Shown here: in pieces, positions 8,870 through 40,816 of the stretch | How positions within the stretch are numbered: the stretch's first letter is position 1 | Layout of the letters: each line of letters opens with the position of its first letter | Assembly: GCA_964248365.1 (NCBI GenBank) | Contig: CAXTYC010000005.1 | Coordinates: 1-64,000, forward strand | Direction of reading: 5' to 3' | From: an uncultured Chroococcidiopsis sp. | Lineage (GTDB): Bacteria; Cyanobacteriota; Cyanobacteriia; Cyanobacteriales; Chroococcidiopsidaceae | DNA: 64,000 nt | Position numbers and translations under genes: made by a program | Notes under the pieces: model-generated | Told to the model about the DNA's origin: nothing | Databases searched by the model: none | What the model saw: the letters and a program-made list of their open reading frames with translations, nothing else

Positions 8870-8931
8870 ACTTTATGAGGTATACGGTAATACGACAATG
8901 AACAATCTTTTGATACCCTTGTCAATTTTTT
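8870..8931 (-). promoter_or_regulatory. Shared regulatory motif copy A plus -10 box (TAAAGT)
   Basis: + strand 8898 ATGAACAATCTTTTGATACCCTTGTCAATTTTTT aligns without gaps to copies B-D. The distal end is replaced by heptamer repeats. The -10 box is at 8870-8875. Confidence 0.65.
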
Positions 8932-9019
8932 AGCGGTTAGCGGGGCAGTTATCAGTTACCAGTTACCAGTTACCAGTTACTAAGCCAGCTAACAACTAAC
9001 AGCGCGCCAGCTAATCGCA

Positions 9020-9046
9020 TAGAGACGCGAAATTTCGCGTCTCTAC
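9020..9046. repeat. GTAG-type REP-like perfect palindrome
   Basis: TAGAGACGCGAAATTTCGCGTCTCTA(C), embedded in heptamer repeats. Confidence 0.75.
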
Positions 9047-9071
9047 TCGCTAACAGCGCGCCAGTTAATAG

Positions 9072-11078
9072 CTAAATGCTAGCTAAATTAGAACTTGTGT
9101 TGGTATGAGCTTGCATTCCACTGAGCGAGGACAAAGAATCATTATTGTTGATGATACTGTTTAGGGCATTACTATCACTAGTGCCAGTACCAGAGGTGGA
9201 CATTGGCTGGTTAAGATTCCCACCACTGCTTAGTAGCTTAAGGAAATCATCAGTGATTTGGTTGTAGAAGGAGTCAATAAAAGTAGTGGTTAGAACATTT
9301 CCATCGCTATTTTGTAACTCCTTTAAACCACCGTTAAGCAATTCATCAACCTGATGACTAAGTTCATCACTAATTTCACAGCGATCTACAACTATTGCCC
9401 AGTCATTATTACCAATAACTAGGCTGTTGTTTCCACTAAAAATTTTGCCATTACTAGCGGGACTACCGATAACTATATTGTTATTACCTTCAATCCAATT
9501 GCCATTACCAAGGGTTTGATTATTTTTACCTAAATACCAGTTGCCATTGCCAACGGTTGCGTTGTCTTCCCCAAAATTCCAGTTGCCATTGCCAATGGTT
9601 GCGTTGTCAGTACCATATTGCCAATTACCATTGCCAATAGTTACATTGTCATCACTAAAGTACCAGTTACCATTACCAAAGGTTTTGTTATCACTAGCAA
9701 AGTACCAGTTGCCATTACCAATTGATTCATTATCAGTAGCATTAAATTTGCTGTCTTCACTACTGGCTATATGGCTAATACTAGCGAACCAGTTTGGATT
9801 GTCGAAGGGTAAGGGTAAGCCATTGAAGGTGAAGTTGCTATTGTCACTACTATCACATGAGTTACTACCAAAAAATTCAGCCAAGGGGTTGTTGGTAAAT
9901 GTGAAACCAGCTTCTTGGGCTTGCGCCATCACATTTGCACTTTGGTTATCATCTCCACTGACTGGATGAGCGCTGCTATCTGTCGTAGTATCAGGAGCGA
10001 TCGCATGATCGCCGCTATTTGCCCCAGTATTATTACTATCAGATGGTTTGCTAACGCCAAGGATTGTGAGCAATTTATTGAACGGGTTGTTCGGATCTTG
10101 GAAGTTGCTCTCGTCAAGCCCTGTAAAGTCCCAAGTGTAGACACCATTGGAGGAACTCTCACCACCCGTAATCGAGTTAGTACCATCTGTTGAGGTATTG
10201 CCACCACCCGTAAATGGGTTGTTGCCACCATCAATGCCACCGAAAACTTGAGCGAAGCTAGTAATCCCGACTTCGCTCAAGGAACCCCAAGGTGACTGAG
10301 CAAACAGTTTGTCCAAGTCGCTATTACCTGAAGTCTGTTCATTGCCTTGGCTATTACCGTCACCTGCAAACGGGTTGCCGCCACCTGCAAACAAGTTACC
10401 ACCGCCTGCAAACGGGTTGCTAGCACTAGGGGATGTGTTGCTATCCCCCGTTGTGTTACCACTGCTTGCAAACGGATTAGCAACACCTGCAAATGGGTTG
10501 CTAGCACCACCAGATGTATTGCTACTAGGGGATGTGTTATTTGATGTGTTAATAGCACTTGCTAACTGATTGCTATTACCTACAAACTGATTACCATTAC
10601 CAATCGATCTGTTGTTACCAACCGATGTGTTACCACTGTTTGCAAATGGAATGCCACTGCCTGCAAACGGGTTGCTAGCACCAGCAAACGGATTACTAGC
10701 ACCTGATGTGTTACCGTCACCCGATGTGTCAGTGCCACTTGTGGTGTTGTCACCACCCGATGTGTTACCACCACCTGCAAATGGATTTGAGCCACCTGCA
10801 AACGGGTTGCCACCAGAAAAATTCCCGCCACCAGCGAACAAATTGGAGATATCACCAGAGGGCGAGTCACCACTAGCAGCATTGCCCCCAGCTGGAGATT
10901 CTCCACTACCGCCACCACTTAAGATAGAAGCAAGCTCATCTTCGCTTAGGAATTGGAGTAAAGGACCAAAGGGCGATTCCTTCAGTAGGCTGCTGGTATT
11001 TTCAGAAGCATTGCTATCAGAAGAGTTGCTGTTGCTATTCTCAGAAGAGTTAAGAGTATCTAAATTAGAGGTTTCCAT
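9072..11078 (-). CDS. Large Gly/Asn/Ser-rich acidic repeat protein (NPFAG repeats and 14-aa GNGNW repeats), putative T1SS substrate
   Basis: 668-aa ORF with ATG and upstream AGGA, no signal peptide, many NPFAG(G) units and 6.5 tandem 14-aa repeats. Confidence 0.82.
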   Translation of the reverse strand: METSNLDTLNSSENSNSNSSDSNASENTSSLLKESPFGPLLQFLSEDELASILSGGGSGESPAGGNAASGDSPSGDISNLFAGGGNFSGGNPFAGGSNPFAGGGNTSGGDNTTSGTDTSGDGNTSGASNPFAGASNPFAGSGIPFANSGNTSVGNNRSIGNGNQFVGNSNQLASAINTSNNTSPSSNTSGGASNPFAGVANPFASSGNTTGDSNTSPSASNPFAGGGNLFAGGGNPFAGDGNSQGNEQTSGNSDLDKLFAQSPWGSLSEVGITSFAQVFGGIDGGNNPFTGGGNTSTDGTNSITGGESSSNGVYTWDFTGLDESNFQDPNNPFNKLLTILGVSKPSDSNNTGANSGDHAIAPDTTTDSSAHPVSGDDNQSANVMAQAQEAGFTFTNNPLAEFFGSNSCDSSDNSNFTFNGLPLPFDNPNWFASISHIASSEDSKFNATDNESIGNGNWYFASDNKTFGNGNWYFSDDNVTIGNGNWQYGTDNATIGNGNWNFGEDNATVGNGNWYLGKNNQTLGNGNWIEGNNNIVIGSPASNGKIFSGNNSLVIGNNDWAIVVDRCEISDELSHQVDELLNGGLKELQNSDGNVLTTTFIDSFYNQITDDFLKLLSSGGNLNQPMSTSGTGTSDSNALNSIINNNDSLSSLSGMQAHTNTSSNLASI

Positions 11079-11515: not shown

Positions 11516-11584
11516 AAGTTAAAATACTTATGGTTCATTGCACATGAATAATCTTTCGATTAATTTGTCAATTTTTTTGATCTT
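11516..11584 (-). promoter_or_regulatory. Shared regulatory motif copy B plus -10 box (TAACTT)
   Basis: + strand 11544 ATGAATAATCTTTCGATTAATTTGTCAATTTTTTTGATCTT. The -10 box is at 11516-11521. Confidence 0.7.
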
Positions 11585-11686
11585 GATTAGACAAAGCAAA
11601 GTAGTAGCCAATTTATGCTTATGGCTGTAGCCCGAGATATATCGTTGTGTGTGGTTGCTTAGAGCTTAATGACCTTGATGGAAATA

Positions 11687-11874: not shown

Positions 11875-12876
11875 TTATCTAGCCACTTTCTCGGCAGCCA
11901 TCACGAACTTACGGAAATTCCGAAAGAATGTTTCGACAGTGCCTTCTGCCAATGCAGTACGGACAGTACTAATTGCTTGCTCCAAACTGTAGTTTGTTTC
12001 TACTAATGATAATGCAAATGCTGCGTTTAAAGTTACTAGATCAACAAGAGACTTTCGACCCTGTCCGCCCAATATGGCTAAAAATTCAACGGCATTATCT
12101 GTAGCATTTCCTCCAGAGATATCTGATGGTTGCACGGTCTTCATGCCAAAATCTTCGGGTACTATTTGCTTTGTACTGATGTTAGATTCTTTTACCTCTA
12201 TTAGTTGGGTTGAACCTGCTAAAGTAATTTCATCAAGTCCATCAGAGCCAGTTACTACCAACGCTGTAGCTCCCAGTTCGGACAAAGTTTCAGCGATGAT
12301 TTGAGCAACCTTGCGATCGCCACAACCGATCATCTGATATGCTGGTTGACTGGGATTGAGTAAGGGTCCTAATAAATTAAAGACGGTAGGAGAACCTACC
12401 TCAGCTCGTGCAGAGGCAAGAATACCAAAACTAGGATGCCAATCACGAGCAAACAGAAAAGTTAGCCCAGTGGTGTCTAGACTTTCTATTGAACGTGCTG
12501 TGAGTGCAGGCAGGGACATACCCAGCACTTCTAATAAATCGCAAGACCCATTCGGCTTGACAGAACCTCGGTTGCCATGCTTAGCAACTCGAACGCCAAG
12601 TGCCGCCGCAATAAATGCTACCGTTGTAGAAACGTTGTAGCGTGGTCTACGAACTCCGCCAGTGCCAACTATATCTAAATCAACATCACCAAAATTTGCT
12701 TGTCGCCTTCTGTCCCAGAGGACATCGCGGTATCCTAGTAGCTCTTCGGGTCGGGCATCAGTTATAGGTCGAGCCTGAAGGAAGTTGACAATTTCATTAA
12801 ATTCAGCTTTGCCCGACAAGAGGTACTCCATAACCTCACGAGCCTGAAGGCGGGTACGCGGGATTGATAGTTTCAT
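11875..12876 (-). CDS. trpD: Anthranilate phosphoribosyltransferase (divergent)
   Basis: DIVGTGG, NVST, AKHGNR, PTVFNLLGPLLNP and DGLDE motifs, in trp gene context. Confidence 0.88.
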   Translation of the reverse strand: MKLSIPRTRLQAREVMEYLLSGKAEFNEIVNFLQARPITDARPEELLGYRDVLWDRRRQANFGDVDLDIVGTGGVRRPRYNVSTTVAFIAAALGVRVAKHGNRGSVKPNGSCDLLEVLGMSLPALTARSIESLDTTGLTFLFARDWHPSFGILASARAEVGSPTVFNLLGPLLNPSQPAYQMIGCGDRKVAQIIAETLSELGATALVVTGSDGLDEITLAGSTQLIEVKESNISTKQIVPEDFGMKTVQPSDISGGNATDNAVEFLAILGGQGRKSLVDLVTLNAAFALSLVETNYSLEQAISTVRTALAEGTVETFFRNFRKFVMAAEKVAR

Positions 12877-12931
12877 GACAGATTAGGTTTTCCTTGGGTT
12901 AATCAGAAATCTCGCACCAGAAGGGACACAA

Positions 12932-13111
12932 TAGACCTCTTGCACTCGTCTTTTTTTTTGTTGCTCGCAAAGACACGAAGTGGAGCCTCTCCGTTCCCCG
13001 AACTCTTTGCCGACGGCTAGGGTAGACGCATTCGCGCAGCGGGGTTTGCAGGCTAGCCGCGATCATTCGGACGCAAAAAGGAGCCTTGCGCTCCTTATGC
13101 TAAGAAGTCTA
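12932..13111. mobile_element. MITE-like element with nested small dispersed repeats
   Basis: Imperfect terminal inverted repeats TAGACCTCTTGCA / TGCTAAGAAGTCTA, with GC-rich mini-hairpins inside and no ORF. Confidence 0.55.
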
Positions 13112-13315
13112 ATGGGGAAGTTAGAAGTTTAGAATAAGCTCCTGGCGAGTAGGAATTAGACATAATAGGCGAATTTGTCTAACTCCTAAATTCTTCTGGC
13201 TCATTTTTCTACCTAGAAGATATGAACAGGTCTATTAGGAGTAGATACCACTACTCCTCTTGGTTCGCTATTGAGGGGCATATAGCATATCTAGCCCCTA
13301 CAATTGCTCTTGCTT

Positions 13316-14560
13316 TTAGCTACCAATTCCTAAATTGGCAACGGTATGCACATCTTTATCACCACGCCCAGAGCAGTTGATGACAATGCGTTGATTGGCA
13401 TCTAGCTGCGGACAGAGAGTGTCTAAATAGGCGATCGCATGAGAAGTTTCTAGAGCTGGAATAATCCCCTCTAGTTTGGCGAGGCGATGAAATGCTTCTA
13501 ATGCCTGCTGATCTGTGACGCTATAGTAGTCAGCGCGACCCAAGTCTTTCAAATAACTATGCTCAGGACCTACACCAGGGTAATCTAGTCCAGCGCTAAT
13601 AGAATGCGCCTCGATCACCTGACCATCTTCATCCTGTAGCAAGTAGCTCATTGCTCCATGCAATACACCAACTCGCCCCTGTGTCAAGGTTGCCGCGTGT
13701 TTATCAGTATCTACTCCAGCTCCAGCTGCTTCGACACCAATCAACCGCACGGTTTGTTCATCAACAAACTCATGGAAGATGCCGATCGCATTGGAACCGC
13801 CACCGACACAAGCTAGGATAATATCTGGCATACCGCCCCATTTTTCCAGACACTGAGCGCGGGTTTCTGTACCAATCACGGCATGAAAGTCACGCACGAT
13901 CAATGGGTATGGATGGGGTCCTGCAACGGAACCTAATATATAGTGGGTTGTTTCTACATTAGTTACCCAATCCCGAATTGCTTCACTCGTCGCATCCTTG
14001 AGCGTGCCTGTTCCTGCTTCGACTGGCCGCACTTCTGCTCCCATCAGCCGCATCCGAAACACGTTCAGCGCTTGGCGTTGCATATCATGGACACCCATGT
14101 AAATCACGCAGTTCAAACCAAAACGAGCGCAAACAGTTGCTGTGGCAACTCCGTGCTGACCTGCTCCTGTTTCGGCAATAATCCGCTGTTTGCCCATGCG
14201 TTTAGCTAGCAACACCTGAGCTAAAGCATTATTAATTTTGTGCGCCCCTGTATGGTTTAAATCCTCACGCTTGAGGTAGATTTGTGGTCCTGTACCATCA
14301 GGTCTAGCATAGTGAGCAGTAAGACGCTCAGCAAAGTATAAGGGACTGGGGCGACCCACATAATCCCGCATCAAGCCTTGTAGTTCTGATTGGAAGCTTG
14401 GATCGTTGCGATACTGGTCATAAGCTATTTCTAGCTCACTTAATGCAGGCATTAAGGTTTCAGGAACATACTTACCGCCGAAACGTCCAAATCGACCGAG
14501 ATTATCAGGTCGTATGCGGGCAGCTGAGATTGTATCATTGATATCTGGTGTGCTTACCAT
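13316..14560 (-). CDS. trpB: Tryptophan synthase beta chain
   Basis: [15 protein letters not shown] (PLP lysine), [15 protein letters not shown] and [13 protein letters not shown] motifs. Confidence 0.98.
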
Positions 14561-14721
14561 TTGTCCGATTCCTCTTGTGAAATATAGATTTCTTGTTTGG
14601 GTAGCAGGGGGATCTGCGTGGGAGAGGGGGAAAAGGGGAGAAATTACCTTTTACCTTTTCTCTTTTCCCCTTTCCCTTTTACCTTTTACCTTTACCCTTT
14701 ACTCTTTTTCTAGCCCCTTAC

Positions 14722-15546
14722 TTAGCTGAGCCTACCTGCAGCAAGAGATGCAGGTGTAATTGCTGCTTTTAGTTCTCGACAAAGTTCAGCAATGGCTTGC
14801 AGTCCTTCATCTTGACTACCAGTTGCTAATTTTTTGACAAAGGCGCTGCCGACAATTACGGCATCTGCTCCCCAATCCATTGCTTGACGTGCTTGATCTG
14901 TTCCTGAGATGCCAAAGCCAATTCCAATCGGTTTGTCGGTTATGCTTCGCATCGAAGTTAGCAAATCATGCACTCGGTTTTGGAGTTCTGAGCGCATACC
15001 TGTAACGCCAGTGACACTGACTAGGTAGATAAATCCTTGCGATTGACGCGCGATCGCTTCTATCCGATCCTTAGAACTAGTAGGAGCCACTAGCAAAATC
15101 ACCTCAATTCCAAAGGTGGCAGCAGTAGAAATTAATTCTTCTGCTTCTTCCAAGGGTAAATCTGGAACCACCAACCCGCGCACCCCAACACTGGAAACTC
15201 GCGCTAAAAATTGCTTAATACCTCGATTTAAAATCGGGTTGTAGTAAGTGAATAAAACTAGAGGTGCTTTTAGGCTGGGGCTAACTTCTTCCACCATCTC
15301 TAAAACTTGTTCTAATCCTGTTCCTTTTTGCAGGGCGCGCGTTGCGGCTGCTTGAATCACAGGTCCATCTGCTAGAGGATCAGAGTAGGGTACACCCAAT
15401 TCAATGATGTCAGCACCGCTGCGATCTAAAATGCGTAAAGCTTCTTTTGTGGTTTCTAAATCTGGGTCGCCAGCTGTGATAAAAGGAATCAGAGCGCATT
15501 GTTTGCGATCGCGTAAAGACTTAAAACAATCAGAGATAGAAGTCAT
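14722..15546 (-). CDS. trpA: Tryptophan synthase alpha chain
   Basis: [17 protein letters not shown] and VSVTGVTG motifs. Confidence 0.98.
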
Positions 15547-15716
15547 CTTGACAATTCACCTAAAACGTGATACTAGATAATGAGTAATCGGAGCAGGGAG
15601 AGGGGGAATCAGGGGAGAGTTGGGAGAGTGGAAGAGGGGGAGAATCATTAATTACGAATTACGCGCTGTGCGTTTTACGAATTACCCTTTCACCTTTTCC
15701 CTTTCACCTTTACCAA

Positions 15717-16676
15717 TTAGCAATTAGCAACTTGTAAAACAATCTTGCCGTGTACACCTTCACCGCCTTGTTCGAGCTTTTTGTGTGCTTCTGCAACTTG
15801 ATTGAGTGGAAAGGTCATACCGACAACAGGCTTGATTTGTCCTCGTTCAATTAGCGTCGAGAGTGCTTCTAGTTTAGGACGGGGACGGTCTAAATGGACG
15901 AAGTGAACTGTAATATTTTTGCCTATAGCAGCATTTAGATCCCCCTGTACGCCAGTTACAGTTACAGCGCGACCATCCGCTTTGGTAACATTTAGACTTT
16001 TGGCTAAGACTTCACCGCTGACCGTAGAAAAAGTAACGTCAACTCCTTGACCGTTAGTTTCCTGCATGATGATATCAACAAAGTCTTCGTTGCGATAGTC
16101 GATCGCTCTGTCTGCACCCAGCGACTTCACAAGTTCAGTGTCGTAACCGCCACAGGTTGTATAAACGTATGTACCTGCTGCCTTGGCTATTTGGATGGCA
16201 AAAGAGCCTACACCGCCAGCCCCACCATGTACTAGCACAGTTTCGCCAACTTTTACATCTGCCTTGGTAATGAGTCCTGCCCATGCTGTCCCGCCTGCAA
16301 CTGGCACAGCTGCTGCTTCTAGGTGTGATATATTTGCAGGCTTTTTGGCAACAATCGCTTCATTTGCTACATGATACTCGGCATTTGCGCCGTCACCATC
16401 CAAAAGCCCTATGGCGTAATATACCTCGTCACCTACTTTAAAATCCTTCACGTCGTCAGATATAGCCTCAACAACACCTGAAACGTCGTAGCCAAGAATT
16501 GCAGGCAGTTTAATTCTAGGTCCAAATCTACCTCGACGCACTCCACAATCGGCAGGGTTGACAGAAGTTGCACAAACCTTGACTAAGATTTCATTTCTAC
16601 CTGGTGTGGGTTGATCCACCTCGCGCTCTTCAAAGACTTCTGGATCTCCGAAGCGTGCGATCGCCATAGCCTTCAT
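15717..16676 (-). CDS. Zinc-independent MDR-family NAD(P)H quinone oxidoreductase / enoyl reductase
   Basis: [25 protein letters not shown] and HGKIVL motifs. Start overlaps the trpC stop (ATGA). Confidence 0.88.
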
Positions 16677-17539
16677 TCAGCTACCTCAGCATTCAGCAGA
16701 GTACGCACAGCCTGCTCTATATCAGGTTGTTTGACTAAAGACTCTCCTACCAAAACCGCCCTCACGCCAGCTTCAGCCACCAGGGATAAATCAGCAGATG
16801 TGTACAATCCTGATTCACTTACAAGCGTTATGCTTTGACTGGATAATTTCTCCTGGCGCTGTGCAATCAGTTTTTGGGTAATTCCTATATCAACCGTAAA
16901 ATTCTCCAAATTACGGTTATTAATTCCCACTAAGCGCACATCTTGTAAAGCTAGCACTCGGTCAAGTTCTTCCAGAGTATGCACTTCCACCAAAGCAGTC
17001 ATGCCCAAACTGTGGACAATTTGCAAAAATTCCTCAAGCTTCTGATCTGACAAAACAGCCGCAATTAGCAGGATAGCATCTGCCCCTGCTGTTCGTGCTA
17101 GATATATCTGATACGGGTCAATAACGAACTCTTTGCACAAAAGTGGTATTGACACGTTCGGGCGAATAGCACGTAGATTGTCAAAACTGCCTTGGAAGAA
17201 TTTCTGATCCGTCAGCACTGATAAACAGCTTGCACCGCCGCGCTCATATGCTTGGGCGATTTTCACCGGATCGAAGTCAGCCCGAATAACCCCTTTACTA
17301 GGTGACGCTTTTTTGACTTCTGCAATTAGGCTTGGTCGATTGGGACTTTCTTGCAAGGCTAGCAAGAAATCTTTTGCCAAAGGTGCATCTTTTACCTGTT
17401 GTTCCAGGTCAATCAAAGGTAAATCTGCCCGCATTTGAGCAACTTCTTGCTCTTTATACCACACAATTTCTTCTAGAATATGGCGTGGTTTGGCATCACG
17501 GGTAATGCTAGGACTTGGGGGATGAGGACTGATTTGCAT
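16673..17539 (-). CDS. trpC: Indole-3-glycerol phosphate synthase
   Basis: [25 protein letters not shown] and SESG motifs. Confidence 0.97.
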
Positions 17540-17747
17540 ACTTGGGGCGCTTGGGCTTATGGTAATCGATGAGCGGGAACGTGGTAGTTGGTAGACGTAG
17601 CACTGCTACGTCTTTCCTGGTAATTGGTAGTTGGAAGCTTGGTAGTTGGGAGCTTGGTATTTCCCCTACTCCCTCTGTTACCTTGTTCTGATCGGAGGAA
17701 ACCACATCTCAGACTCCGCGCTACTCCCTACTCCCTTCTTCCATTAC

Positions 17748-20145: not shown

Positions 20146-20215
20146 AGCTTATAAAATGCCCTGTAGCAGTCGCCATGAGCATTGTTTTGACAGCCTTGTC
20201 AATTCTTTCGATCTT
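20146..20215 (-). promoter_or_regulatory. Shared regulatory motif copy C plus -10 box (TAAGCT) upstream of trpE
   Basis: + strand 20175 ATGAGCATTGTTTTGACAGCCTTGTCAATTCTTTCGATCTT. The -10 box is at 20146-20151. Confidence 0.7.
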
Positions 20216-20272
20216 AGTTTTGGCAAATACAGCTTTTAGAATTCGCGCATTCGCGCATTTGCAATTCGGAAT

Positions 20273-25100: not shown

Positions 25101-25108
25101 AGTCTTTC

Positions 25109-26356: not shown

Positions 26357-26409
26357 CTTTTAGCTACTTGCTCATGGGTAATGGCTAATGGGTAATGGCT
26401 AATGGGTGT

Positions 26410-26565: not shown

Positions 26566-26567
26566 AA

Positions 26568-28718: not shown

Positions 28719-28760
28719 AGTTTTGTTTTTTTGTTCTCTAACCACAATCGGTAGTACTTT

Positions 28761-29870: not shown

Positions 29871-30030
29871 ATTCGCTAATTAGTGGTTGGTAATTGGTAG
29901 TTGGTAAAGAGTTAAAGGTTAAAGGTTAAAGGTTAAAGGTTAAAGGTTAAATCAATTCCCTTTTCCCTTTTCCCTTTCCCCTTTTCCCTTCTTCCATTAC
30001 CCATTACCCATTACCGATTTACAGACAATT

Positions 30031-30960: not shown

Positions 30961-31067
30961 ATCAAATTCGGATTAATCGCTTCATTTATAATGATCTTCT
31001 TTGTCTTTCTTAGCGTCTTAGCGTCTTTGCGTGACACTAATACAGTGCGTCGCAAAACGCACCTCGT

Positions 31068-31976
31068 TCACTCAATCAATACGTAGTCGCGGCTAGACTG
31101 CACAATCGGCTCTTGTCCGCGCAGGACGGAATTACCATTGAATAACTGTCGCTGGTCAATAGAGGGCGGGTTAAGCCAGTCAGATTCTTGCATCTGACCA
31201 CTTTGGCTGTAAGCAGCTAGGGCATTTTTGTAACAAACAGCCTCGACGTGAGATAGGGGAATTCCCCGCTCTAACATCAGTTGGGCAGTTTTAGGTACAG
31301 CGAGAGTGTCGCTAATTCCCCAATCAGCACTACTGTCCACGATGATGCGATCGCACCCATAAGAGCGTACAATTTCTACCATCCTGGCATTCCCCATCTT
31401 TGTATATGGGTAAATCGTAAAAGCTGCCCAAAACCCTCTATCTAGTACTTCCTCGACTGTTTCTTCATTGTTGTGATCTACAATCACGAGGGAAGGATCT
31501 AACCCATGCTCAAGGCAAACATCCATACTTCGGCTAGCGCCTGCCTTTTTATTGCGATGGGGTGTGTGAATCAACACCACCATATCTAGTTCTTTTGCCA
31601 ATTCTAGCTGTTGGCGAAAGAATTTATCTTCGGCTGGGGTTTGGTCGTCGTAGCCAATTTCACCAATGGCGACTACACCCTCTTTGCAAGCAAAAAGAGG
31701 CAACAATTCCATTACAGCTTCAGCCAATGGTTCGTTGTTGGCTTCTTTTGGGTTTAACCCAATTGTGCAGTAATGGCGAATACCAAACTGAGCAGCCCGA
31801 AATCTTTCCCACCCCACTAAGCTACTAAAGTAGTCTTGAAACGAGCCTGCATTGGTACGAAGCTGTCCTAACCAAAAGGCTGGCTCAATCACAGCTACAA
31901 TACCTGATTCTCGCATCACCAGGTAATCATAGGTTGTGCGAGCAGTCATATGAATGTGAGGATCAATAAACATCAT
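31068..31976 (-). CDS. eboB: TatD-family hydrolase EboB
   Basis: DPHIH, GEIGYD, IHTPH and DSSADWG motifs. Confidence 0.94.
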   Translation of the reverse strand: MMFIDPHIHMTARTTYDYLVMRESGIVAVIEPAFWLGQLRTNAGSFQDYFSSLVGWERFRAAQFGIRHYCTIGLNPKEANNEPLAEAVMELLPLFACKEGVVAIGEIGYDDQTPAEDKFFRQQLELAKELDMVVLIHTPHRNKKAGASRSMDVCLEHGLDPSLVIVDHNNEETVEEVLDRGFWAAFTIYPYTKMGNARMVEIVRSYGCDRIIVDSSADWGISDTLAVPKTAQLMLERGIPLSHVEAVCYKNALAAYSQSGQMQESDWLNPPSIDQRQLFNGNSVLRGQEPIVQSSRDYVLIE

Positions 31977-32065
31977 AGTAATTAGTAATTGTTAATTGGT
32001 AATTGGTAATTGGTAATTGGGGAAAAGGGTAAAGGTAATTGTCCCCTTGTCCCCTTGTCCTCCCC

Positions 32066-32968
32066 CTAGCCCCTAGCCCCTAGCCCCTCGCTTAAGCTGT
32101 TCCAAGTCAGGAGTCCTGATTGGATGGAGGCTTGTAAGTTTGGGTAACGGGCGAGGAGAGTTTGAGCTTGCGGTAAGGGACACTCGGCACAAGCAAGGGC
32201 GGCGGCGGCTTGCCCTTTTGGATCGCTTTGCGCGATCGCTTGCTCTAAATCGGATATTATGGTACAATCTGCAAACTTTCCCACCAATCGCCAAAGTAGG
32301 GGAGATACTGTGCGAGAAGCGCGAAAGCGTTCATGGGCATAGTCAATTGCCATTTTAGTTAGTTCGGGATTAGTGCGATCGTCCAATCCCTGAATTAAAT
32401 GCAGAGGACTACCCACAAACAGAGCTTTTAATACCATTTGGTTCCAAGCAAGATTGTCAAAATACTCTGCTGGATATGGATTTCGTAAAGCCACAGCGTT
32501 GAAAACTGCTGTCATATTGCTGCGAACTCCTTCCGCAGCACGTACTTTAAGCCGTTCTGGATAAGGTAAAAGGGGAAGGGCTTGATAAAGTGCTACTCCT
32601 TCTCCTACATCAGCGGTGGTAAATACTTGCTCCAAAGTTTGCAAATATTTCTCTGCATTATCTTGGGGTAGAGCCAGTACTAGTATTGTACGAGCGACTT
32701 GATCCACGCTCCAATGAGCAGGAAACCAGCCTTTGCGCATTGTCGAGGCTGCTTGTAAGTCTTCTTGTGTTAGCTCCAGGTCTTTTTTTCCTACATAGCG
32801 AGGTACTGCGCTAAAAGCAGTGAAAAATACTCTTGCACTTGCTCCCTGGCTAATTTGCCAGCTTTTTTCATCGAGCCAAGTCAGACCTTCTTTGGTAATA
32901 TGCTGTCCCAGCCAGCGACGCATTAAGTCACTTACACTTGTTTGGTTTAAATAAGTTGCAGAAGACAT
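32066..32968 (-). CDS. eboA: EboA family protein
   Basis: EGVRSNM..NPYP..WNQMVLKALF motif; first gene of the ebo block. Confidence 0.92.
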   Translation of the reverse strand: MSSATYLNQTSVSDLMRRWLGQHITKEGLTWLDEKSWQISQGASARVFFTAFSAVPRYVGKKDLELTQEDLQAASTMRKGWFPAHWSVDQVARTILVLALPQDNAEKYLQTLEQVFTTADVGEGVALYQALPLLPYPERLKVRAAEGVRSNMTAVFNAVALRNPYPAEYFDNLAWNQMVLKALFVGSPLHLIQGLDDRTNPELTKMAIDYAHERFRASRTVSPLLWRLVGKFADCTIISDLEQAIAQSDPKGQAAAALACAECPLPQAQTLLARYPNLQASIQSGLLTWNSLSEGLGARG

Positions 32969-33057
32969 AAATCTTATTACTTATAGGAGAGTTGCTTTAT
33001 TTCCTTTTACGCTTGCTTATGAATGTTTTAATTTGCTTTAACCCACTTGTGCTATTA

Positions 33058-33079
33058 GCCCAGAAATTAATTTCTGGGC
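33058..33079. repeat. 22-bp perfect palindrome between scyF and eboA
   Basis: GCCCAGAAATTAATTTCTGGGC. Confidence 0.7.
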
Positions 33080-33176
33080 GGGGTATCAGTCTAATAAAAC
33101 AGCCAGGTTCTTGAAAGGTTACTTTTGAAAGAGCAATCCCTTCTCCAAACAAGAGCTTTGAAGGTTCAACTAGCCT

Positions 33177-34373
33177 CTAGCTGGCTGAATTGAAGCTTTG
33201 CTTTTGCTGCAAATATTTCTTCAATCTGACAGCACCAGCTCCAATTCCCAGGACGGTTAATCCTAGTAATGTGCTTGGTTCAGGAACTTCGGTACTACCT
33301 TTATCGCCTTCCTTATAGTTGACATCTAACACTTGGACACGACCTTGGAAGAAATCGTTCACATAGTACTTGTCACCTTGTATGGCTGCACCTGACGTCC
33401 AGTTAAATCTACCTGGTGTGAGGTCGAGGGGATCACCATAGGGAGAGGGTGCGCCCAACGCTACAGGTGGTACGACATTGCCATTTGCATCGCGGGCAGG
33501 TTCGCCAAATGCAGTCAGGAATTTTCCGTCTTTATCGAATACTTGGACGCGGCTATTGATCGAATCGGTCACGAAGATATTATCTTTGCTGTCCACTTTC
33601 ACATCAATTGGCTGATTAAACTGCCCAGATCCGGTTCCTTGTTCGCCAATAATCTTAATCGGTTCTCCTTGTGGATTAAGTACCTGAAGGCGGTTATTGA
33701 GCTGGTCGGCGACAACGATATTGCCATCAGAGGTTATCCCTATGCCTGATGGTCCTTGAAATTGTCCAGGTGCACTACCCGTAGTGCCGCCAATAGTACC
33801 AACTATGTCGCCATTTGAATTAAATTTCAGGATGCGATCGCCAGTATAATCACCAACATAGCCAACGCCATCTTTGTCAAATGTAATTTGTGATGGTCCA
33901 AAGAAAGGTCTACCTTCAATCAGACCGCCAAATTGACCTTGAGCAATCGATTTGATATAGTTACCGTCGCCATCGAATACATTGACGCGGTTGTTGAAAA
34001 CATCACCCGCATACAGATTGCCAGTACCAGGCTCGAAGGCGAGCGCTGCTGGCTCGTCGAACTGTCCAGGTCCGCTGCCCGTACCGCCAATTCCTTTGAT
34101 ATAGTTACCTTGAGAATCGAAGACCTCAACGCGATCGACTCCGCGAGCGTTAGCTACGAAGACATCCCCAGTTGATTCCTGCACGGCTACGCCTTGGGGA
34201 ACGGCAAGCGTGCCAGGAGCGCCTGGAAACTCGCCTTGGGCTAGGTTAGCAGGTCTACCAATCTGACTGTCATATTGTAAAGTTACCGACTGCGCAAAGG
34301 CTTGCGCTCCTCCTGCTAATACCACACATCCGGCACTAGCAACAGCAATTGATACATTTTTTACTAATTTCAC
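33177..34373 (-). CDS. scyF: Scytonemin biosynthesis protein ScyF (NHL repeats, PEP-CTERM)
   Basis: Signal peptide, repeated G.G.GQF..P..D..N.RVQVFD NHL units, and C-terminal VPEP + TM + basic tail. Confidence 0.9.
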   Translation of the reverse strand: MKLVKNVSIAVASAGCVVLAGGAQAFAQSVTLQYDSQIGRPANLAQGEFPGAPGTLAVPQGVAVQESTGDVFVANARGVDRVEVFDSQGNYIKGIGGTGSGPGQFDEPAALAFEPGTGNLYAGDVFNNRVNVFDGDGNYIKSIAQGQFGGLIEGRPFFGPSQITFDKDGVGYVGDYTGDRILKFNSNGDIVGTIGGTTGSAPGQFQGPSGIGITSDGNIVVADQLNNRLQVLNPQGEPIKIIGEQGTGSGQFNQPIDVKVDSKDNIFVTDSINSRVQVFDKDGKFLTAFGEPARDANGNVVPPVALGAPSPYGDPLDLTPGRFNWTSGAAIQGDKYYVNDFFQGRVQVLDVNYKEGDKGSTEVPEPSTLLGLTVLGIGAGAVRLKKYLQQKQSFNSAS

Positions 34374-34761
34374 GAGGTTTCACTCCTAGTTTTGAACCAA
34401 ATAATCGTTGGTTTCGCGTAGTGCGATTGTATTTACAAGCACACCGTCTTTTAAATTATCACTGAGTAGATGACTTCCCTGTATAAGTACTTATCAGAAA
34501 ACTGCCAGAATTTCTATGTCTGAAATTTCGATCTATTGTGGGCGATCGCTCTATTTGGAACAAAGGCATCACTTTAGTACTCAGATAAGTCTGGGATCAG
34601 AAACTTGCCTCACCTAACAAATCGTCAGTAATTGCACTCTTTCTGTCCCAGACTGTATTGTGCGATCAACTGTAGTGTTTGCTACACTTATCCCGAATAA
34701 CAAGAGCCTCTACAGTTGAAAATTAGATCTCTATTGAGCCTGCTTTCGTCTCAACTTTGTT

Positions 34762-36222
34762 CTAATCATCCAAGCCATTAGCAAATTTGACTCGATCAAG
34801 TAGCTGCTGACGCTTGCGCTTCAACATTGCGCCACCGCCTATAGCACCAAGAGCTAACACTCCTAGCATAGAAGTAGGTTCGGGGACTTCTTCTGTTTTA
34901 CCTTGATTACCGTAGCCATCCACGCCATCAACTCGAACTACTTCCCCATTTCCAGGACCAACGCCCTTGTTTACCAGGTAGATCTCATTGTTAGGACCAA
35001 CTGCGATCCCAGTACCAGACCGTAGCCCGTCAACTTCAGAAACTAAAGTTGTCCTCGTACCATCTGGAGCTACTCGAATTAAAGAACCTGGTAGATTTGC
35101 TTCGTCTGCACCCTTCCACTGTGACTGGTCAGCGAATTGTAAGACTAGCAAATTGCCGTTCTTATCAAACTTGATGTCTGTAGTTTGCGTAAACCCATCA
35201 GCGTAGAGTTGTGGCTTACCATCATCTCCTATGCGCCAAATGCGGGCTTTACCTTCGGGAAAAGGAAAACCTGAATATTCGCTAACATATACAGCGCCAT
35301 CGGGACCAACTGCGATACCTGTGGGTACTGATTGAAGAGTCGCCTGATTTGCACTAGGGGCAGGGGGCGTAGTTGCTCCTTGCTGACCAGCAGGCGGTAG
35401 TGCTTCTCCGCTCGACCCTGTTCCTGTCGTAGGTACGGCAGAACCGGGCGCAGGAGGTGGATACACTGGGTTGTCTACGGTTCGTGTAGGAATTACAATT
35501 GGTGTGAGGTTACTGCCATCGAGATTCGTCTTCCATACAACGTTCGCACCTCCATCAGCGATATAAAGATTATCACCCTTAATTGCCAGACCATAAGGGT
35601 TGCTAATTACGTCGCCTTTGTCAGGATTAGTCGTCAGCTCAGCTTTCGCCAAGTCAGCAATAGCTGTGTATTGACCTGTGCTTACATCGATTTTGTATAA
35701 TTTGCCCAAGTCAGGAGCATTAATTACTTGATCCGCTGGGAGTGGTGGAGCAATTTGCGCTTGCTGCGGTGGGAATTGGACATTTGCAGAAAGGGCATTT
35801 AGCTCTGAATCTCGGTTTGCTGGATTACCAGCCCACCCTGAAATAAAGTAACCATTGCCTTGATCGTCAAATTTGACATCTTGAGGACCTGCTCCCTCAT
35901 ACCCAGAAGGCTGTAATGCTAGAGACTCAAAATTGCTGATTACATTGCTAGTCTCACCAGTTTCTGGGTTAATTTTGGCGATCGCACCAGTATTACCTTC
36001 ACAGATCTGGGCATACGCTACGCTAGGCGATGGCTGACATTTGCCATCTCCCCCACGACCTGTCTCTCCTAGGTAGAGATCACCGTCAGGACCATAGGTT
36101 AGACCGCGTGCATTATCAAATCCTTCGGCAATTGTTGTTAAACTGGCAGCGTGAGCAGCTGGCATTCCTGCCAAGGCAATACATGAACTTAAAAGCGTAA
36201 GAGTTAACAGCCTAGTCTTCAT
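34762..36222 (-). CDS. scyE: ScyD/ScyE family periplasmic protein with PEP-CTERM (single copy, probably ScyE)
   Basis: Signal peptide, SNPY, QSVPTGIAVGPDGA and GFPFPEG motifs, VPEP tail, and position between scyC and scyF. The D-versus-E assignment is inferred. Confidence 0.75.
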   Translation of the reverse strand: MKTRLLTLTLLSSCIALAGMPAAHAASLTTIAEGFDNARGLTYGPDGDLYLGETGRGGDGKCQPSPSVAYAQICEGNTGAIAKINPETGETSNVISNFESLALQPSGYEGAGPQDVKFDDQGNGYFISGWAGNPANRDSELNALSANVQFPPQQAQIAPPLPADQVINAPDLGKLYKIDVSTGQYTAIADLAKAELTTNPDKGDVISNPYGLAIKGDNLYIADGGANVVWKTNLDGSNLTPIVIPTRTVDNPVYPPPAPGSAVPTTGTGSSGEALPPAGQQGATTPPAPSANQATLQSVPTGIAVGPDGAVYVSEYSGFPFPEGKARIWRIGDDGKPQLYADGFTQTTDIKFDKNGNLLVLQFADQSQWKGADEANLPGSLIRVAPDGTRTTLVSEVDGLRSGTGIAVGPNNEIYLVNKGVGPGNGEVVRVDGVDGYGNQGKTEEVPEPTSMLGVLALGAIGGGAMLKRKRQQLLDRVKFANGLDD

Positions 36223-36338
36223 ATTTTCGAGAGTGGTCGTTTAATAGTTGTTAGTTGTAGATACTACTTGATGATTGTTACAGAAAGAATATTGATTACT
36301 GGACATCAGGCATCAAAGATGCACTACGAGTGGCGGGA

Positions 36339-37283
36339 TTATGAAGGCATATAGCTCATTCCACGCGCAAACGTTTCTAGATTACCAGCCTTTGCCTCCA
36401 GAAAACGTTTGATGTTCATGCTTTCTGCACCAAAGTCCTCGAGTTGTAGCTTACCTCTGCGGGGAGTTTTGCCTACTTCCCAGAAGGTGAGTCGGTGCTG
36501 AATGCAACCAGGAGCAGACGGATCGCCGAAAGCATAGGAGGTGGGAATTAGAATCGTGGGGCAGCGCTGAATATAATTTTCATCAGGATAGTAGAAATCC
36601 TGTTCAATTAGGTAATAATTCTTCAGATCGTGGGTTCTGAATGTAACTTTTACCTTCTGGTTATATTCATCGAGAAATTCACCAGAGCTAGGAGCAATTT
36701 CGCCCTGAGATCGCAGTAGATGCGCCCATTGAGTCATGTTACGCAAATCTCCTAGGTAGGCGATCCCTTCTTCAAGGGGAGCATCGATATAGATTGTATC
36801 TACATCAATTCTGTAACGTCCCTGTGCCGCTTCTGTACATCCTGAAGAGCGTTCCAAAATCGCTTTGAGAGATCGACACTCAGAAGTATGTACTGTGTGA
36901 ATTCCCTCCATGATCATTGGATTGCGCCGCTTTGGATCTACAAAGCTCAACCAGTGGAAGTATACTCCCTTTTCGTCTGTGCCAGGCTCAATATATTCTG
37001 GAGGAAATAGAAAGACTGGGTAAACCTGGAAGTACTTTTGGTACTCAAGCCCACAGTGCCATTCTATACCAAAAAAGTCAGAATTTTCAATCTTTCTTAC
37101 GTGATAATACAGATCTGCATGATAGCCCGAAGCTGTACCACGCCAGGTATTCTCGTCGATCTGCTCTTTCATCCGACTGAAAAGAGTCCAATCGTCTAAG
37201 TTCTTTAAACTACACAGGTAGTCGAAAGCCGTTTGGGGAGAAGTTGCTATATAAGCAGAGGTAGCAAACGTATTTTTTTCCAT
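36339..37283 (-). CDS. scyC: Scytonemin cyclase/decarboxylase ScyC
   Basis: NTFATSAYIATSP..AF.YLCSLKNL N-terminus; lies directly after scyB. Confidence 0.92.
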   Translation of the reverse strand: MEKNTFATSAYIATSPQTAFDYLCSLKNLDDWTLFSRMKEQIDENTWRGTASGYHADLYYHVRKIENSDFFGIEWHCGLEYQKYFQVYPVFLFPPEYIEPGTDEKGVYFHWLSFVDPKRRNPMIMEGIHTVHTSECRSLKAILERSSGCTEAAQGRYRIDVDTIYIDAPLEEGIAYLGDLRNMTQWAHLLRSQGEIAPSSGEFLDEYNQKVKVTFRTHDLKNYYLIEQDFYYPDENYIQRCPTILIPTSYAFGDPSAPGCIQHRLTFWEVGKTPRRGKLQLEDFGAESMNIKRFLEAKAGNLETFARGMSYMPS

Positions 37284-37303
37284 TGGTAACTCCTTTAAGG
37301 CAA

Positions 37304-38356
37304 CTAAGCCGCAACCTTGATTTTTTTGGCTCTCATAATCCGCTCTTCAGCCAAACGCTTAGAAGCCTCTTGCGTAGTTATTCCCTCGTGTTTAGCCTTG
37401 CTAAAAATTTCCAAGAGAGTGTCATAGATGTTATTAACTTGTTCTAAAGACTCGGCATCATCTAGATCAATCAGTTCACTGTAAACATTAATTAAGCCTC
37501 CTGCATTTATGACATAATCTGGGCAATAGAGGATGCCTTTTGCTTCAAGCATCTTGCTATGCATTTGCTCATCTTGCAACTGATTGTTAGCACAGCCTGC
37601 AATAATAGAAGCTTTAATAGAAGGAATTGTCAAACTGTTAAGAATTGCTCCTAAAGCACAAGGAGCAAAAACATCAACATCAAGCGAGTAAATTTCCTCT
37701 GGTTCTACTACTGTTGCGCCGTAGAGTTGTTTAATCTCCTCTGCCTTCTTCCTATCTACATCAGTTACAAAAAGTTCTACACCTTGCTTATGCAGGTAAT
37801 CACAAAGGTTTTTGCCTACATTACCAGCTCCTTGAACTGCAACTCGAAGTCCACTCAGTTCTTGTTTTTTGAGTTGAAATTCGCTGGCAGCTTTGATGCC
37901 TAAATACACGCCTAAAGCTGTTGCTGGGGCAGGTCCTCCAGCTTTTTCTGTTACACCCACAACATATTTCGTTTCACGCCCCATCGTCCTTACGTCTTCA
38001 GGGCAGATATTCATATCTTGACCTGTAACAAAACGTCCTTTGAGGCTATCAACAAAACGCCCGTATGCTCTGAGCATTTCATCTGTTTTGTGTTCAGGAT
38101 TAGCAATAATTACTGCTTTTCCACCACCTACAGGAATGTTCGCACAGGCAGCTTTGTAGGTCATACCGCGACTCAGACGCAGCACGTCTTGCAAAGCATC
38201 TTCCTCGCTGGCATAAGGAAACAGACGAGTAGCGCCCATAGCTCGACCAGGGCTGGTATCATGTAATGCGATAATTGCCTTAAAATTTAAATCTTTGTCA
38301 TGGCAAAACAGAACTTGTTCATGACCCATTTCTCTAACAGTCTCAAACAGCTTCAC
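37304..38356 (-). CDS. scyB: Tryptophan dehydrogenase ScyB (Glu/Leu/Phe/Val dehydrogenase family)
   Basis: LRLSRGMTYK, GGGKAVI, QGAGNVG and PDYVINAGG motifs. GTG start at 38356 lies 6 nt after GAGGAG (alternative ATG at 38374). Confidence 0.93.
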   Translation of the reverse strand: MKLFETVREMGHEQVLFCHDKDLNFKAIIALHDTSPGRAMGATRLFPYASEEDALQDVLRLSRGMTYKAACANIPVGGGKAVIIANPEHKTDEMLRAYGRFVDSLKGRFVTGQDMNICPEDVRTMGRETKYVVGVTEKAGGPAPATALGVYLGIKAASEFQLKKQELSGLRVAVQGAGNVGKNLCDYLHKQGVELFVTDVDRKKAEEIKQLYGATVVEPEEIYSLDVDVFAPCALGAILNSLTIPSIKASIIAGCANNQLQDEQMHSKMLEAKGILYCPDYVINAGGLINVYSELIDLDDAESLEQVNNIYDTLLEIFSKAKHEGITTQEASKRLAEERIMRAKKIKVAA

Positions 38357-38501
38357 ACATATCTCCTCATACATAGGGATTAGGGATTAGCGATTAGCTA
38401 TTAGCACAGATTAACTTGTTAGTATTAAGAGTTTATAGCTCAAATGCAATAACTCGAAAAACCAAAAGCTAATAGCTAACAGCTAACAGCTAATAGCTTT
38501 G

Positions 38502-40403
38502 TTAAACCATTGGGAATGAAATCTGTTCCTTCTTAGCTGAAGAATTTGATTTCACTCCTTGTGCTTGCAAGCTCTTATTTCGTCCGCCAGAGGGTGCAAT
38601 CCGAGTATGATCGATGATTACGTCAACCACAAACGGGGTAGGAGATGCGAGCGCACTCTCTAAGGCTGACGAAATCTCCGACTCTTTTTCGACGCGGATA
38701 CCGTCGGCTCCCATACTCCGAGCCAGCATGACAAAATCAGTTTCTGGCATCTGAGCATCTGCACCCTGAAGCCCCAGCATCTTCATGCCTTGTTCGCACA
38801 TATTGTATCGGGAGTCGTTCAGGATAATCCAGACAGCCTTCGTGTTGTACTTCACCGCTGTGCTGACTTCCCCGCTGTTCATCAGCATTGATCCGTCCCC
38901 AGTAATCGCAACGGCTTTGCCGTTCCGTGCTTGGGCTGCTCCCACAACTCCGGCGACCATGTGACCCATCGAGCCTACACCAGTGCTGACTCGGTAACGA
39001 TTCGTTTTGTCAATGCGTAGAAAATGAGTTGCCCAAGTAAACGAGTTACCAGACTCAGCCATAATCACTGCATCGCTACCTTCGACGAATACGCGCTGAA
39101 TAGCCTCCATCACCACTTCAGGACGCACCATTTCGGTCGTAGCTGGACTAATTGCTTCTTGTTCTGGACGAGGCAGTTTTACACTTGAGGGACTCTTTTG
39201 AGGTAGACGCTTGAGCAGCGCCCGCAAAAATGCTCCTACATCAGAGTGAATGGGCAAGGTTTCAACAGATGAATACGCAACTCCTGGCACTTCGGGATCA
39301 ATGTCAACGTGTATGAATCCTCTTAAAGGAACCATCGTCGGATTCCAGAACGAAGTTGGTTCACCTAAGCGAGTTCCCAGTACCAAAGTCCGTAAAGGCG
39401 GTTGCTCCTGCATATATTTGATTACCGAAGCGTGTCCGCCCAAGCCTGTCACGCCGACAAATTGAGGATGGTCTTCGCTTAAAATTCCTTTACCACGCGG
39501 CGAACACATTACAGCGGCTCCGGTTCTCTCTGCTAAAGCGCGAATCTCTTCTGCCGCACCTCTAGCACCAAAGCCAACCCAGATTGCAAACGGTCCTTCA
39601 GATAGCAGATCTACGCATTGCTCGATTGTTTCCTCACTTGGAGTCGTTAGAGAATGAGACAGATCTGGGGGAGACATTGGTGTAATCAGACAACTTGTTT
39701 GTACTCCTGTAGGAATACTCAAGTGAGCAACAAAGCCGCCAGGTTGTGACAAGCCCAGAGCAAGTCGGCGAGAAATTTGTGGGAGTTGCTCAGCCGACTC
39801 GACCGTAGTGGCAAAATTGAACAGCGCTCCAGAGGTAAAGATCCCTGAGCTTGGCAATGTGTATCCGCTGGTTTCCTGAATCGCCCACCGTCCGCGTTGG
39901 GGTGCTGAGGTGCAAGCAGATATTAAAATCACTTTTGCACCCTCACCGCGTCCGGCAAATAATCCGGTTAGTGCGTTGGTCAGTCCGGGACCTGCTGTTG
40001 TAAATGCCACAACAGGGCGATCGCTTGCGAAATATGCTTCAACAGCTGCAAAAGCTGCTCCCCCTTCGTGGCGGCAATGAATCACTTCAATACTACTATT
40101 AGACATCGCTCCCCAAAGCGTTGCCATTGCTCCTCCAGAGACACCAAAGGCTTGGCTGATGCCTAGATCTACTAGCATCTGGGCGATCGCTTCTGAAACC
40201 GATGGTAATGTGGCTGGCTCGTCGTCTGGAAAAGGAACAATATTCTCGTCGTTTGCTCGGTCTTCTACGTCGTTATCTGTTTCATTGAACCTTTTGTAAT
40301 CGTAAGTAGGATCAATTGACGGCGTAGATTCTACGTAGGTACTTGAGTCAAAGTGAGAGTCAGTGACGATGGGCGTTGTTGATTGGGTATAGTTTTCAGT
40401 CAT
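38502..40403 (-). CDS. scyA: ThDP-dependent acyloin synthase ScyA
   Basis: CRHEGGAAF, TTAGPG.TN and GDGS..NDS ThDP motifs; heads the cluster. Confidence 0.94.
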   Translation of the reverse strand: MTENYTQSTTPIVTDSHFDSSTYVESTPSIDPTYDYKRFNETDNDVEDRANDENIVPFPDDEPATLPSVSEAIAQMLVDLGISQAFGVSGGAMATLWGAMSNSSIEVIHCRHEGGAAFAAVEAYFASDRPVVAFTTAGPGLTNALTGLFAGRGEGAKVILISACTSAPQRGRWAIQETSGYTLPSSGIFTSGALFNFATTVESAEQLPQISRRLALGLSQPGGFVAHLSIPTGVQTSCLITPMSPPDLSHSLTTPSEETIEQCVDLLSEGPFAIWVGFGARGAAEEIRALAERTGAAVMCSPRGKGILSEDHPQFVGVTGLGGHASVIKYMQEQPPLRTLVLGTRLGEPTSFWNPTMVPLRGFIHVDIDPEVPGVAYSSVETLPIHSDVGAFLRALLKRLPQKSPSSVKLPRPEQEAISPATTEMVRPEVVMEAIQRVFVEGSDAVIMAESGNSFTWATHFLRIDKTNRYRVSTGVGSMGHMVAGVVGAAQARNGKAVAITGDGSMLMNSGEVSTAVKYNTKAVWIILNDSRYNMCEQGMKMLGLQGADAQMPETDFVMLARSMGADGIRVEKESEISSALESALASPTPFVVDVIIDHTRIAPSGGRNKSLQAQGVKSNSSAKKEQISFPMV

Positions 40404-40746
40404 TGCCTTGCGGTAATTATAAGAAGTTCAACGAGTAGCTAGTGCCTATTTGAAGCCTCGAAGCGTTATTACACTCTATGAGGATTTGTAATTTCTAAAA
40501 TCTGTTGAAGTTTCTGATCTGGCTCGACTGGCGGTAAGGATCTCATTGCAAAGGTGTTGCCTAGGTAATCCCTAAGTTGGAGCGAGTATTGAGTTGTCCT
40601 TGATAAAAGCTATTAGCTATTAGCTGTTAGCTTTTTGTACGAGTGTCCTTTGAAGAATCACTAATAACCAATGAATAATCACTCAAAGGCGAATGACTCT
40701 TGACCGCTCTGGGCGTTGCTAGTAGACTCAGCAACGCTGAACAGTA

Positions 40747-40816
40747 ATTTTACCTAATGTTAAGTAGCCACCCCAATGAGTAATCTTTTGATCGTGTTGG
40801 CTATTTTTTCGATCTT
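40747..40816 (-). promoter_or_regulatory. Shared regulatory motif copy D plus -10 box (TAAAAT): predicted scyA promoter
   Basis: + strand 40776 ATGAGTAATCTTTTGATCGTGTTGGCTATTTTTTCGATCTT. The -10 box is at 40747-40752. Confidence 0.7.

Follow-up and report, generated by a model that had tools for sequence, protein, structure and literature searches.

We identified a conserved 38-bp motif preceding scyA, trpE and two genes for Gly-rich proteins (gly173 and gly668) in a 64,000-nt stretch of DNA from an uncultured Chroococcidiopsis sp. (the window, in whose numbering positions are given). The minus strand of the window carries a scytonemin cluster, trp genes, the two Gly-rich genes, which are unannotated, and an exporter. 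The motif is a real, conserved operator that has apparently not been described. Sequence comparison indicates that it is probably the site at which ScyR, the receiver-AraC regulator of the cluster, binds and activates both the scytonemin genes and a family of Gly/Asn-rich protein genes. A preliminary description of the window had proposed that the motif is an operator of the local regulator and that the Gly-rich genes are induced along with scytonemin synthesis. Comparison among genomes lends strong support to both proposals and widens the regulon to three further Gly-rich loci, one scyD-like and one peroxidase-like gene.

The four copies in the window, A to D, lie upstream of gly173, gly668, trpE and scyA respectively, and all face their downstream genes. 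Their positions and letters are those originally given (Table 1), and pairwise identity is 29–33 of 42 positions. The 21-bp periodicity noted at the outset also holds, with a self-match of 0.52 at period 21 and of 0.22–0.40 at the other periods of 15–25, as does the minus-strand TAnnnT hexamer, which follows 22 nt behind the motif in copies A and B and 23 nt behind it in copies C and D. However, copy A has not lost its distal half-site as was supposed; the outer four bases alone differ, and AAA.AATTGACAA is intact.

The consensus was derived from 32 non-redundant sites, collapsed from 37 that score at least 24 with a matrix built from scyA sites only. In the direction of transcription it reads ATCRAAAGAATTGACAA, four variable bases, then ATCAAAARATTRTTCAT. 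The motif consists of two 17-bp direct repeats with 4 bp between them. The TAnnnT hexamer, which lies outside the matrix, occurs at +22/23 in 30 of the 32 sites, whereas at offsets that do not overlap with these the number never exceeds 9. The hexamer starting from the last motif base has the consensus TTGCAA, a weak -35 that has one base in common with the proximal half-site. With these spacings the half-sites would lie near -72 to -56 and -51 to -35. These promoters were missing from a generic promoter scan of 6900–12000, as a weak -35 would lead one to expect, and the counts of the scan were at chance level (12 versus 9.3 +/- 3.8). The motif folds no better than shuffled sequence (mean fold z -0.19), and Rfam gives no match at the operator positions, its only matches within the window being two group II intron pieces. 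A structured RNA or a mobile repeat was set aside as the identity of the motif on these grounds.

The motif is sharply defined in the 5.58-Mb source genome. With leave-one-out matrices every held-out copy (34.7–36.5 bits, 4/4) scores above all other sites. When the matrix is made from nine scyA sites that were all taken from other genomes, the two Gly-rich sites of the window rank 1 and 5. A matrix from 25 sites outside the source genome finds exactly 10 matches of at least 16 bits, and the reversed matrix none; nine of the ten are intergenic, have a -10 and face a gene. The match at C6:167286 (C, L and G are our handles for contigs, loci and genomes) was set aside, being intragenic and lacking a -10. 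The motif is not confined to the four copies first described, as the genome has five more outside the window. They precede Gly-rich loci on C2, C12 and C29, of which two can be recognized as paralogous to the window genes, a ScyD/E-family gene on C17 that groups with ScyD with moderate support (89/88) in the ScyD/E tree, and a gene for a MauG-like di-haem protein on C13. The predicted direct regulon in the source genome thus comprises nine promoters: those of scyA to eboF, trpE to trpD, the two Gly-rich genes of the window, the C2, C12 and C29 loci, and the C17 and C13 genes. The MauG-like protein (L041:216-2519, G000:C13) has two CxxCH motifs and could, speculatively, carry out an oxidative step or serve in peroxide defence; its gene has the operator here and in G005.

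The scyA site is found at 31 of 40 loci examined with a matrix from the non-scyA sites of the source genome. When the locus of the window itself, 12 loci fetched by pattern and four ScyA-related or ambiguous genes are left out, there remain 23 true scyA loci, all in other genomes and gathered blind to the motif. The site is upstream at 19 of these, three of them with a spacer 1 bp shorter. None of the four genes left out as ScyA-related and outside scy clusters (L003, L004, L021) or as ambiguous (L006) has it. The site also precedes trpE in G004, G005, G011, G012, G060, G130, G163, G173 and G292. In rearranged clusters it stands before whichever of scyA, trpE, eboA and aroG leads the unit: before scyA and eboA in G037, before the divergent scyA and trpE in G130 and G163, and before aroG-scyA in G154. 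Displaced scyD-like genes retain it in G003, G004 and G005. Ten other genomes gave 53 pattern matches, which precede scyA (16), trpE (4), scyD-like genes (2), members of the Gly/NPF family (20), another low-complexity repeat gene (5) and other genes (6).

At the family level (f7) we sampled 201 genomes, 95 with scyC and 106 without. The site occurs in 80 of the 95 scyC-containing genomes, 57 of them with at least two, while no genome lacking scyC has two or more and the reversed pattern occurs in none of the 201. In other genomes, two or three tandem operators about 125 bp apart lie upstream of scyA at L212:11984-12400 and L211:17161-17330; where there are three, the nearest alone has a -10. 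Genus g130 has an FDKYGIP-type low-complexity repeat gene with the operator in four genomes (L307, L311, L318, L327). Among the targets met more than once are also a small secreted protein (L326, L330, L354) and, judged by eye, a possible methyltransferase (L343, L346).

The Gly-rich genes follow the scytonemin pathway closely. The 668-aa protein contains 10 NPF motifs and six 14-residue GNGNW repeats, and shares an SPWG.LSEVG segment with the 173-aa protein. Strong matches to the GNGNW protein occur in 13/13 relatives with scyA compared with 0/27 without, where two weak matches contain stops. Order-wide, the gene is present in 7 of 9 genomes with scyC and 0 of 141 without, and in f7 in 83 of 95 and 1 of 106, the one being a 125-aa fragment; the genomes counted are related, so that these tests are not independent. 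In G012, G018, G037 and G163 the GNGNW gene forms part of the operon, following scyF; elsewhere such genes are usually at the cluster tail or dispersed. Among the top 30 GNGNW loci of f7, 22 have a same-strand site within 1.5 kb upstream and none elsewhere; wider stretches add three, giving 25 of 30, and shuffled loci give 0 of 600. Further Gly-rich loci at cluster tails have the site in 11 of 11 cases. No named homologue from N. punctiforme or N. flagelliforme appears among the matches listed or the cluster members. In G113 four tandem Gly-rich genes lie directly upstream of scyA (L224:10341-13464), and in G011 genes for cyanoexosortase A and its associated protein and an HpsJ-like gene come just before the Gly-rich gene at the tail of the scy cluster (L134:4956-7294); the tail in G004 has the HpsJ-like gene only (L125:2607-3311).

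The architecture of the motif is that of an AraC/XylS-type operator. The half-sites of araI are 17 bp long and 4 bp apart, and XylS sites have a similar geometry. Like araI1-araI2 at PBAD and the XylS sites at Pm, the motif has direct repeats about two helical turns apart (17+4+17 bp, period 21), and its proximal half-site reaches -35 at a fixed spacing and orientation to the -10 (30 of 32 sites; 9 of 10 matches in the source genome). An AraC-family protein is co-distributed with it, the regulator lying beside the site in mapped clusters and a variant site beside a paralogue. The half-site sequence differs from those of AraC and XylS, and the input domain of ScyR, the candidate binder, is a receiver rather than a sugar- or aromatic-binding domain. 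According to the available part of PMC6018408, sites for AraC-family proteins are located around -35, and occupancy of I1 and I2 activates. One ScyR subunit would occupy each half-site and recruit RNA polymerase to a predicted sigma-70-type promoter with a weak -35. ScyR would in this way switch on the scytonemin genes together with those for the Gly/Asn-rich proteins.

Several observations weigh against this interpretation. No site was found upstream at four true scyA loci (G060, G113, G167 and L005); G060 nevertheless has the site before trpE and, divergently, a Gly-rich gene. Five of the top 30 Gly-rich loci of f7 are also without it. The Gly-rich cassette at the cluster tail in genomes of the same genus has a weak site in G003 and G006 (15.8–16.7 bits) and none at 15 bits in G001, G002 and G004, and the MauG-like or peroxidase-like gene keeps its site in G005 alone of five relatives. 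The match at C6:167286, which falls inside a coding sequence and has no -10, scores 30 bits. G284 has a site that precedes another gene and is 3.5 kb away from eboA on its upstream side. Because the genomes are related, the counts given above are not independent and overstate significance. Finally, 21 of the 106 f7 genomes without scyC have exactly one variant site; the six that were opened, and those of G134 and G283, all precede a hetP-like gene, and in G134, G167 and G283 the locus is trpC-hetP-like and lies beside a paralogous kinase-regulator pair. The motif is therefore not exclusive to scytonemin. The variant operators at L131:9928, L240:5001 and L241:7349, before hetP-like and trpC genes and also in genomes that have no scy genes, could reflect a link to heterocyst commitment or tryptophan supply.

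These variant sites, which occur in Nostocaceae-type genomes, speak for an alternative in which the operator is real and another protein, either a paralogous receiver-AraC or an unrelated factor, binds it, with ScyR acting indirectly. The local regulator, which lacks the phosphoacceptor Asp, could also be impaired. We consider this alternative improbable. The source genome has nine sites and only one ScyR-like protein, its next AraC domain being 35% identical. The helix-turn-helix (HTH) region remains conserved within the Asp-less genus (77–81% to the window protein), and G113, where the regulator frame is truncated, has no detectable site either. The paralogue is itself a member of the ScyR family (about 50% identical). 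Since the variant site lies beside this paralogue, the motif is best interpreted as an operator that serves the ScyR family as a whole, the paralogue included where one exists.

It is still less probable that the Gly-rich genes share the motif through promoter copying during duplication, or as a small dispersed repeat, and are not co-regulated with scyA. The Gly-rich genes are paralogous, so some common upstream sequence is to be expected, and some copies in the genus have decayed. Against this, the half-sites and the spacing to the -10 persist across families while flanks and spacer diverge, the same site precedes the unrelated scyA, trpE and scyD-like genes, the operator positions have neither a hairpin tendency nor an Rfam match, and the Gly-rich genes lie within the scy operon in several lineages and track scyC in the 201 genomes. 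The notion that the block is an alternative-sigma core promoter, or holds a second promoter on the distal half-site, where TTGACA is the consensus at motif columns 15–20, is about as improbable: no TAnnnT lies 16–18 nt past TTGACA, which was rejected as a -35, the conserved -10 lies 44–45 nt on, the information spans 38 bp and includes a spacer of 4 variable bp and a periodicity of 21 bp, and extra upstream copies before scyA in some genomes have no -10.

The proposed binder, ScyR, appears to be an unusual member of its family. In Nostoc punctiforme an 18-gene cluster is accompanied by the kinase Npun_F1277 (ScyHK) and ScyR, Npun_F1278; as in the window, a receiver-AraC protein is encoded beside scyA, with scy, ebo and aromatic genes. 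The window regulator differs in being co-oriented with scyA and in two further respects. The phosphoacceptor Asp of its receiver is replaced by Glu, as in G005, and by Gly in five other genomes of the genus, while alignment shows that cluster-linked regulators of other genera keep the Asp. In addition, no ScyHK orthologue was found: the best match to NF045595 in the source genome scores 328 bits against a cut-off of 865 and covers the C-terminal part alone, and none was found in G001, G003, G004, G005, G010, G011, G037 and G163. G012 has an orthologue that scores 864 bits over its full length. Given the Glu and the lack of a kinase, the regulator of the source genome likely works without phosphorylation, controlled by its own expression or by another input, and we infer the same for the genus. 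Upstream of the regulator gene lies an AT-rich 1.5-kb region (41644–43163) with no ORF of 100 aa. In other clusters the kinase gene occupies this place, and the region may hold the control region of the regulator.

The two Gly-rich proteins of the window are acidic and have no signal peptide or hydrophobic leader, RTX motif or PEP-CTERM tail; neither the PEP motif nor the transmembrane helix nor the basic tail is present. In this they are unlike the PEP-CTERM/exosortase substrates ScyD, ScyE and ScyF, which their tailed homologues resemble. Many homologues end in a VPE-hydrophobic-basic tail, with no signal peptide evident by eye at their start, and the C12 paralogue gives a weak PEP-CTERM match (E 0.043). 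The 668-aa protein matches no Pfam or NCBIfam family (Pfam E 0.001). In the predicted structure, the GNGNW repeat region forms a beta-solenoid or beta-roll with 14 residues per coil (pLDDT 85.7). The closest folds to this model are the Lolium perenne ice-binding beta-roll (PDB 3ULT; Z 18.3, rmsd 2.0 over 111 residues), which is also reached by a profile match (E 0.0014), and YadA-like adhesin heads (Z 12–15). Matches from the ESM Atlas were below 0.9 and serve as leads only. Unlike 3ULT and its family PF21300, which a few homologues carry, the GNGNW repeats have a Trp ladder. A common solenoid fold, itself taken from a model, demonstrates neither ice binding nor adhesion. The proteins are probably structural rather than catalytic.

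A more far-reaching reading, which we regard as rather unlikely, is that ScyR runs a structural arm of the sunscreen response. The leaderless, Trp-laddered Gly/Asn-rich beta-rolls, produced alongside the pigment, would form a scaffold for the capture and stacking of scytonemin, located in the sheath or at the surface of the cell. ScyD would be a functional part of this arm, and the switch of this genus would have shed its light-sensing kinase and become phosphorylation-free. Were this so, scyD would keep an operator of its own after leaving the operon because ScyD belongs to the structural arm. A displaced scyD is on record in Chroococcidiopsis thermalis, and it was suggested that scyD is kept by its position (PMC4870267, available in part). 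The operators of the displaced scyD-like copies argue against scyD persisting only through its position in the operon.

Table 1. Operators, predicted promoter elements and genes of the window
Feature	Coordinates	Strand	Basis and remarks
Operator copy D	40776..40817 (core 40776-40813)	-	Begins 8 nt beyond the regulator stop codon and precedes scyA, as it does elsewhere
Predicted -10 TAAAAT, scyA promoter	40747..40752	-	Sequence and spacing statistics; start site inferred near 40740
Operator copy C	20175..20216	-	Upstream of trpE
Predicted -10 TAAGCT, trpE promoter	20146..20151	-	Sequence, matrix scan
Operator copy B	11544..11585	-	Upstream of the 668-aa gene; top score of the genome, rank 1 with matrices from other genomes only
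Predicted -10 TAACTT downstream of copy B	11516..11521	-	Sequence, matrix scan
Operator copy A	8898..8939	-	Upstream of the 173-aa gene; equivalent place in G005
Predicted -10 TAAAGT downstream of copy A	8870..8875	-	Sequence, matrix scan
ScyR-type receiver-AraC regulator, candidate binder	40825..41643	-	Pfam Response_reg and HTH_18; alignment and tree
scyA scyB scyC scyE scyF eboA eboB eboC tyrA dsbA aroB eboE gst eboF	22961..40403	-	NCBIfam and Pfam; ScyD/E tree
HTH-NACHT-NCH2 gene	20273..22621	-	Between eboF and trpE
trpE trpC qor trpA trpB trpD, predicted unit under copy C	11875..19958	-	NCBIfam/Pfam
gly668, 668-aa acidic Gly/Asn/Ser-rich protein	9072..11078	-	Sequence composition, repeats, predicted structure
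gly173, 173-aa Gly-rich protein	8084..8605	-	Sequence
ppiC-like, hlyB, hlyD, type I exporter	2008..7945	-	Domain models; adjoins the Gly-rich genes

The genes of the window identify the scytonemin cluster clearly, with scyA, scyB, scyC, scyE and scyF accompanied by ebo genes and dedicated aromatic amino-acid genes (Table 1). ScyA, ScyB, ScyC, the ScyD/E-family protein, ScyF, EboC and EboE score above the NCBIfam cut-offs, and EboA is recognized by family and domain models. No scyD was found in the cluster by NCBIfam, Pfam or the ScyD/E tree. The genes from scyA to eboF form one predicted unit under copy D, and would be transcribed together. The scy operon of G011 encodes a 1078-aa protein in which a ScyD/E-family domain is fused to a GDSL lipase-like domain (L121:11462-14698). 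The HTH-NACHT-NCH2 gene occupies the equivalent position in G004, where glycosylation-type genes follow it, and in G005 it immediately precedes the site of trpE. At 11687–11790, between trpD and copy B, lies a perfect inverted repeat whose 19-bp arms are 66 nt apart. The two group II intron pieces are domain V/VI matches (RF00029) at 493–571 and 881–959, 388 bp apart.

The Gly-rich genes adjoin a type I exporter, as the preliminary description had noted. Beyond this adjacency a link between the two finds no support. No operator precedes the ppiC-hlyB-hlyD genes, and the GGxGxD nonapeptide is absent from all seven Gly-rich proteins of the source genome, on which count RTX-type substrates were rejected. 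The exporter was likewise rejected as a conserved partner. In the other mapped genomes the Gly-rich genes are not followed by this exporter; G005 may be an exception, its contig being broken at the junction. The closest exporter homologue in G011 (78%) has a different neighbour, and G012 gives no exporter match at E 1e-200, though it has Gly-rich genes. The C39 domain of the exporter appears to be without the catalytic Cys, judged by the consensus around this residue. Read-through from copy A into the exporter genes is possible. A paralogue of the exporter (78%) at L042:2618-8472 (G000:C46) is interrupted by a small gene on the opposite strand and has no Gly-rich neighbours.

ScyR has been studied most in N. 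punctiforme, where the regulator is required for scy expression (PMC9127174; PMC7997468; here and below, the sources cited were available in part). When this AraC-type regulator is deleted, expression of the scy operon falls about 200-fold and that of the satellite ebo cluster is unchanged (PMC9127174). We found no site within 1.4 kb upstream of eboA in the satellite ebo clusters of five out of five genomes, which fits the ScyR-independence of ebo in that organism. Many of the targets in the same 2022 RNA-seq study of the regulator are uninformative hypothetical genes (PMC9127174), and a review of 2021 considered the interaction of the regulator with cis elements still to be elucidated (PMC7997468). 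Unlike the N. punctiforme system as described, Gly-rich, displaced scyD-like and peroxidase-like genes carry the site here. Neither a ScyR site nor the Gly-rich genes turned up in the open literature, subscription papers and several supplements being out of reach. The accessible parts of PMC13707963, PMC2726228 and PMC6529634 give no motif or extra genes under the terms searched, and those of PMC12188702, PMC3610870 and PMC9045159 no start-site data for these promoters.

A sharp operator makes direct and indirect targets of ScyR separable, including in existing data (PRJNA728749), and offers a reason for the independence of the satellite ebo cluster from the regulator. It also supplies engineers with defined promoter parts that respond to UV, and draws attention to versions of the ScyR switch that operate without a kinase. 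An unannotated protein family, present in most of the scyC-containing f7 genomes, is added to a much-studied pathway. If the motif is the ScyR site, the Gly-rich proteins would be overlooked members of the sunscreen response.

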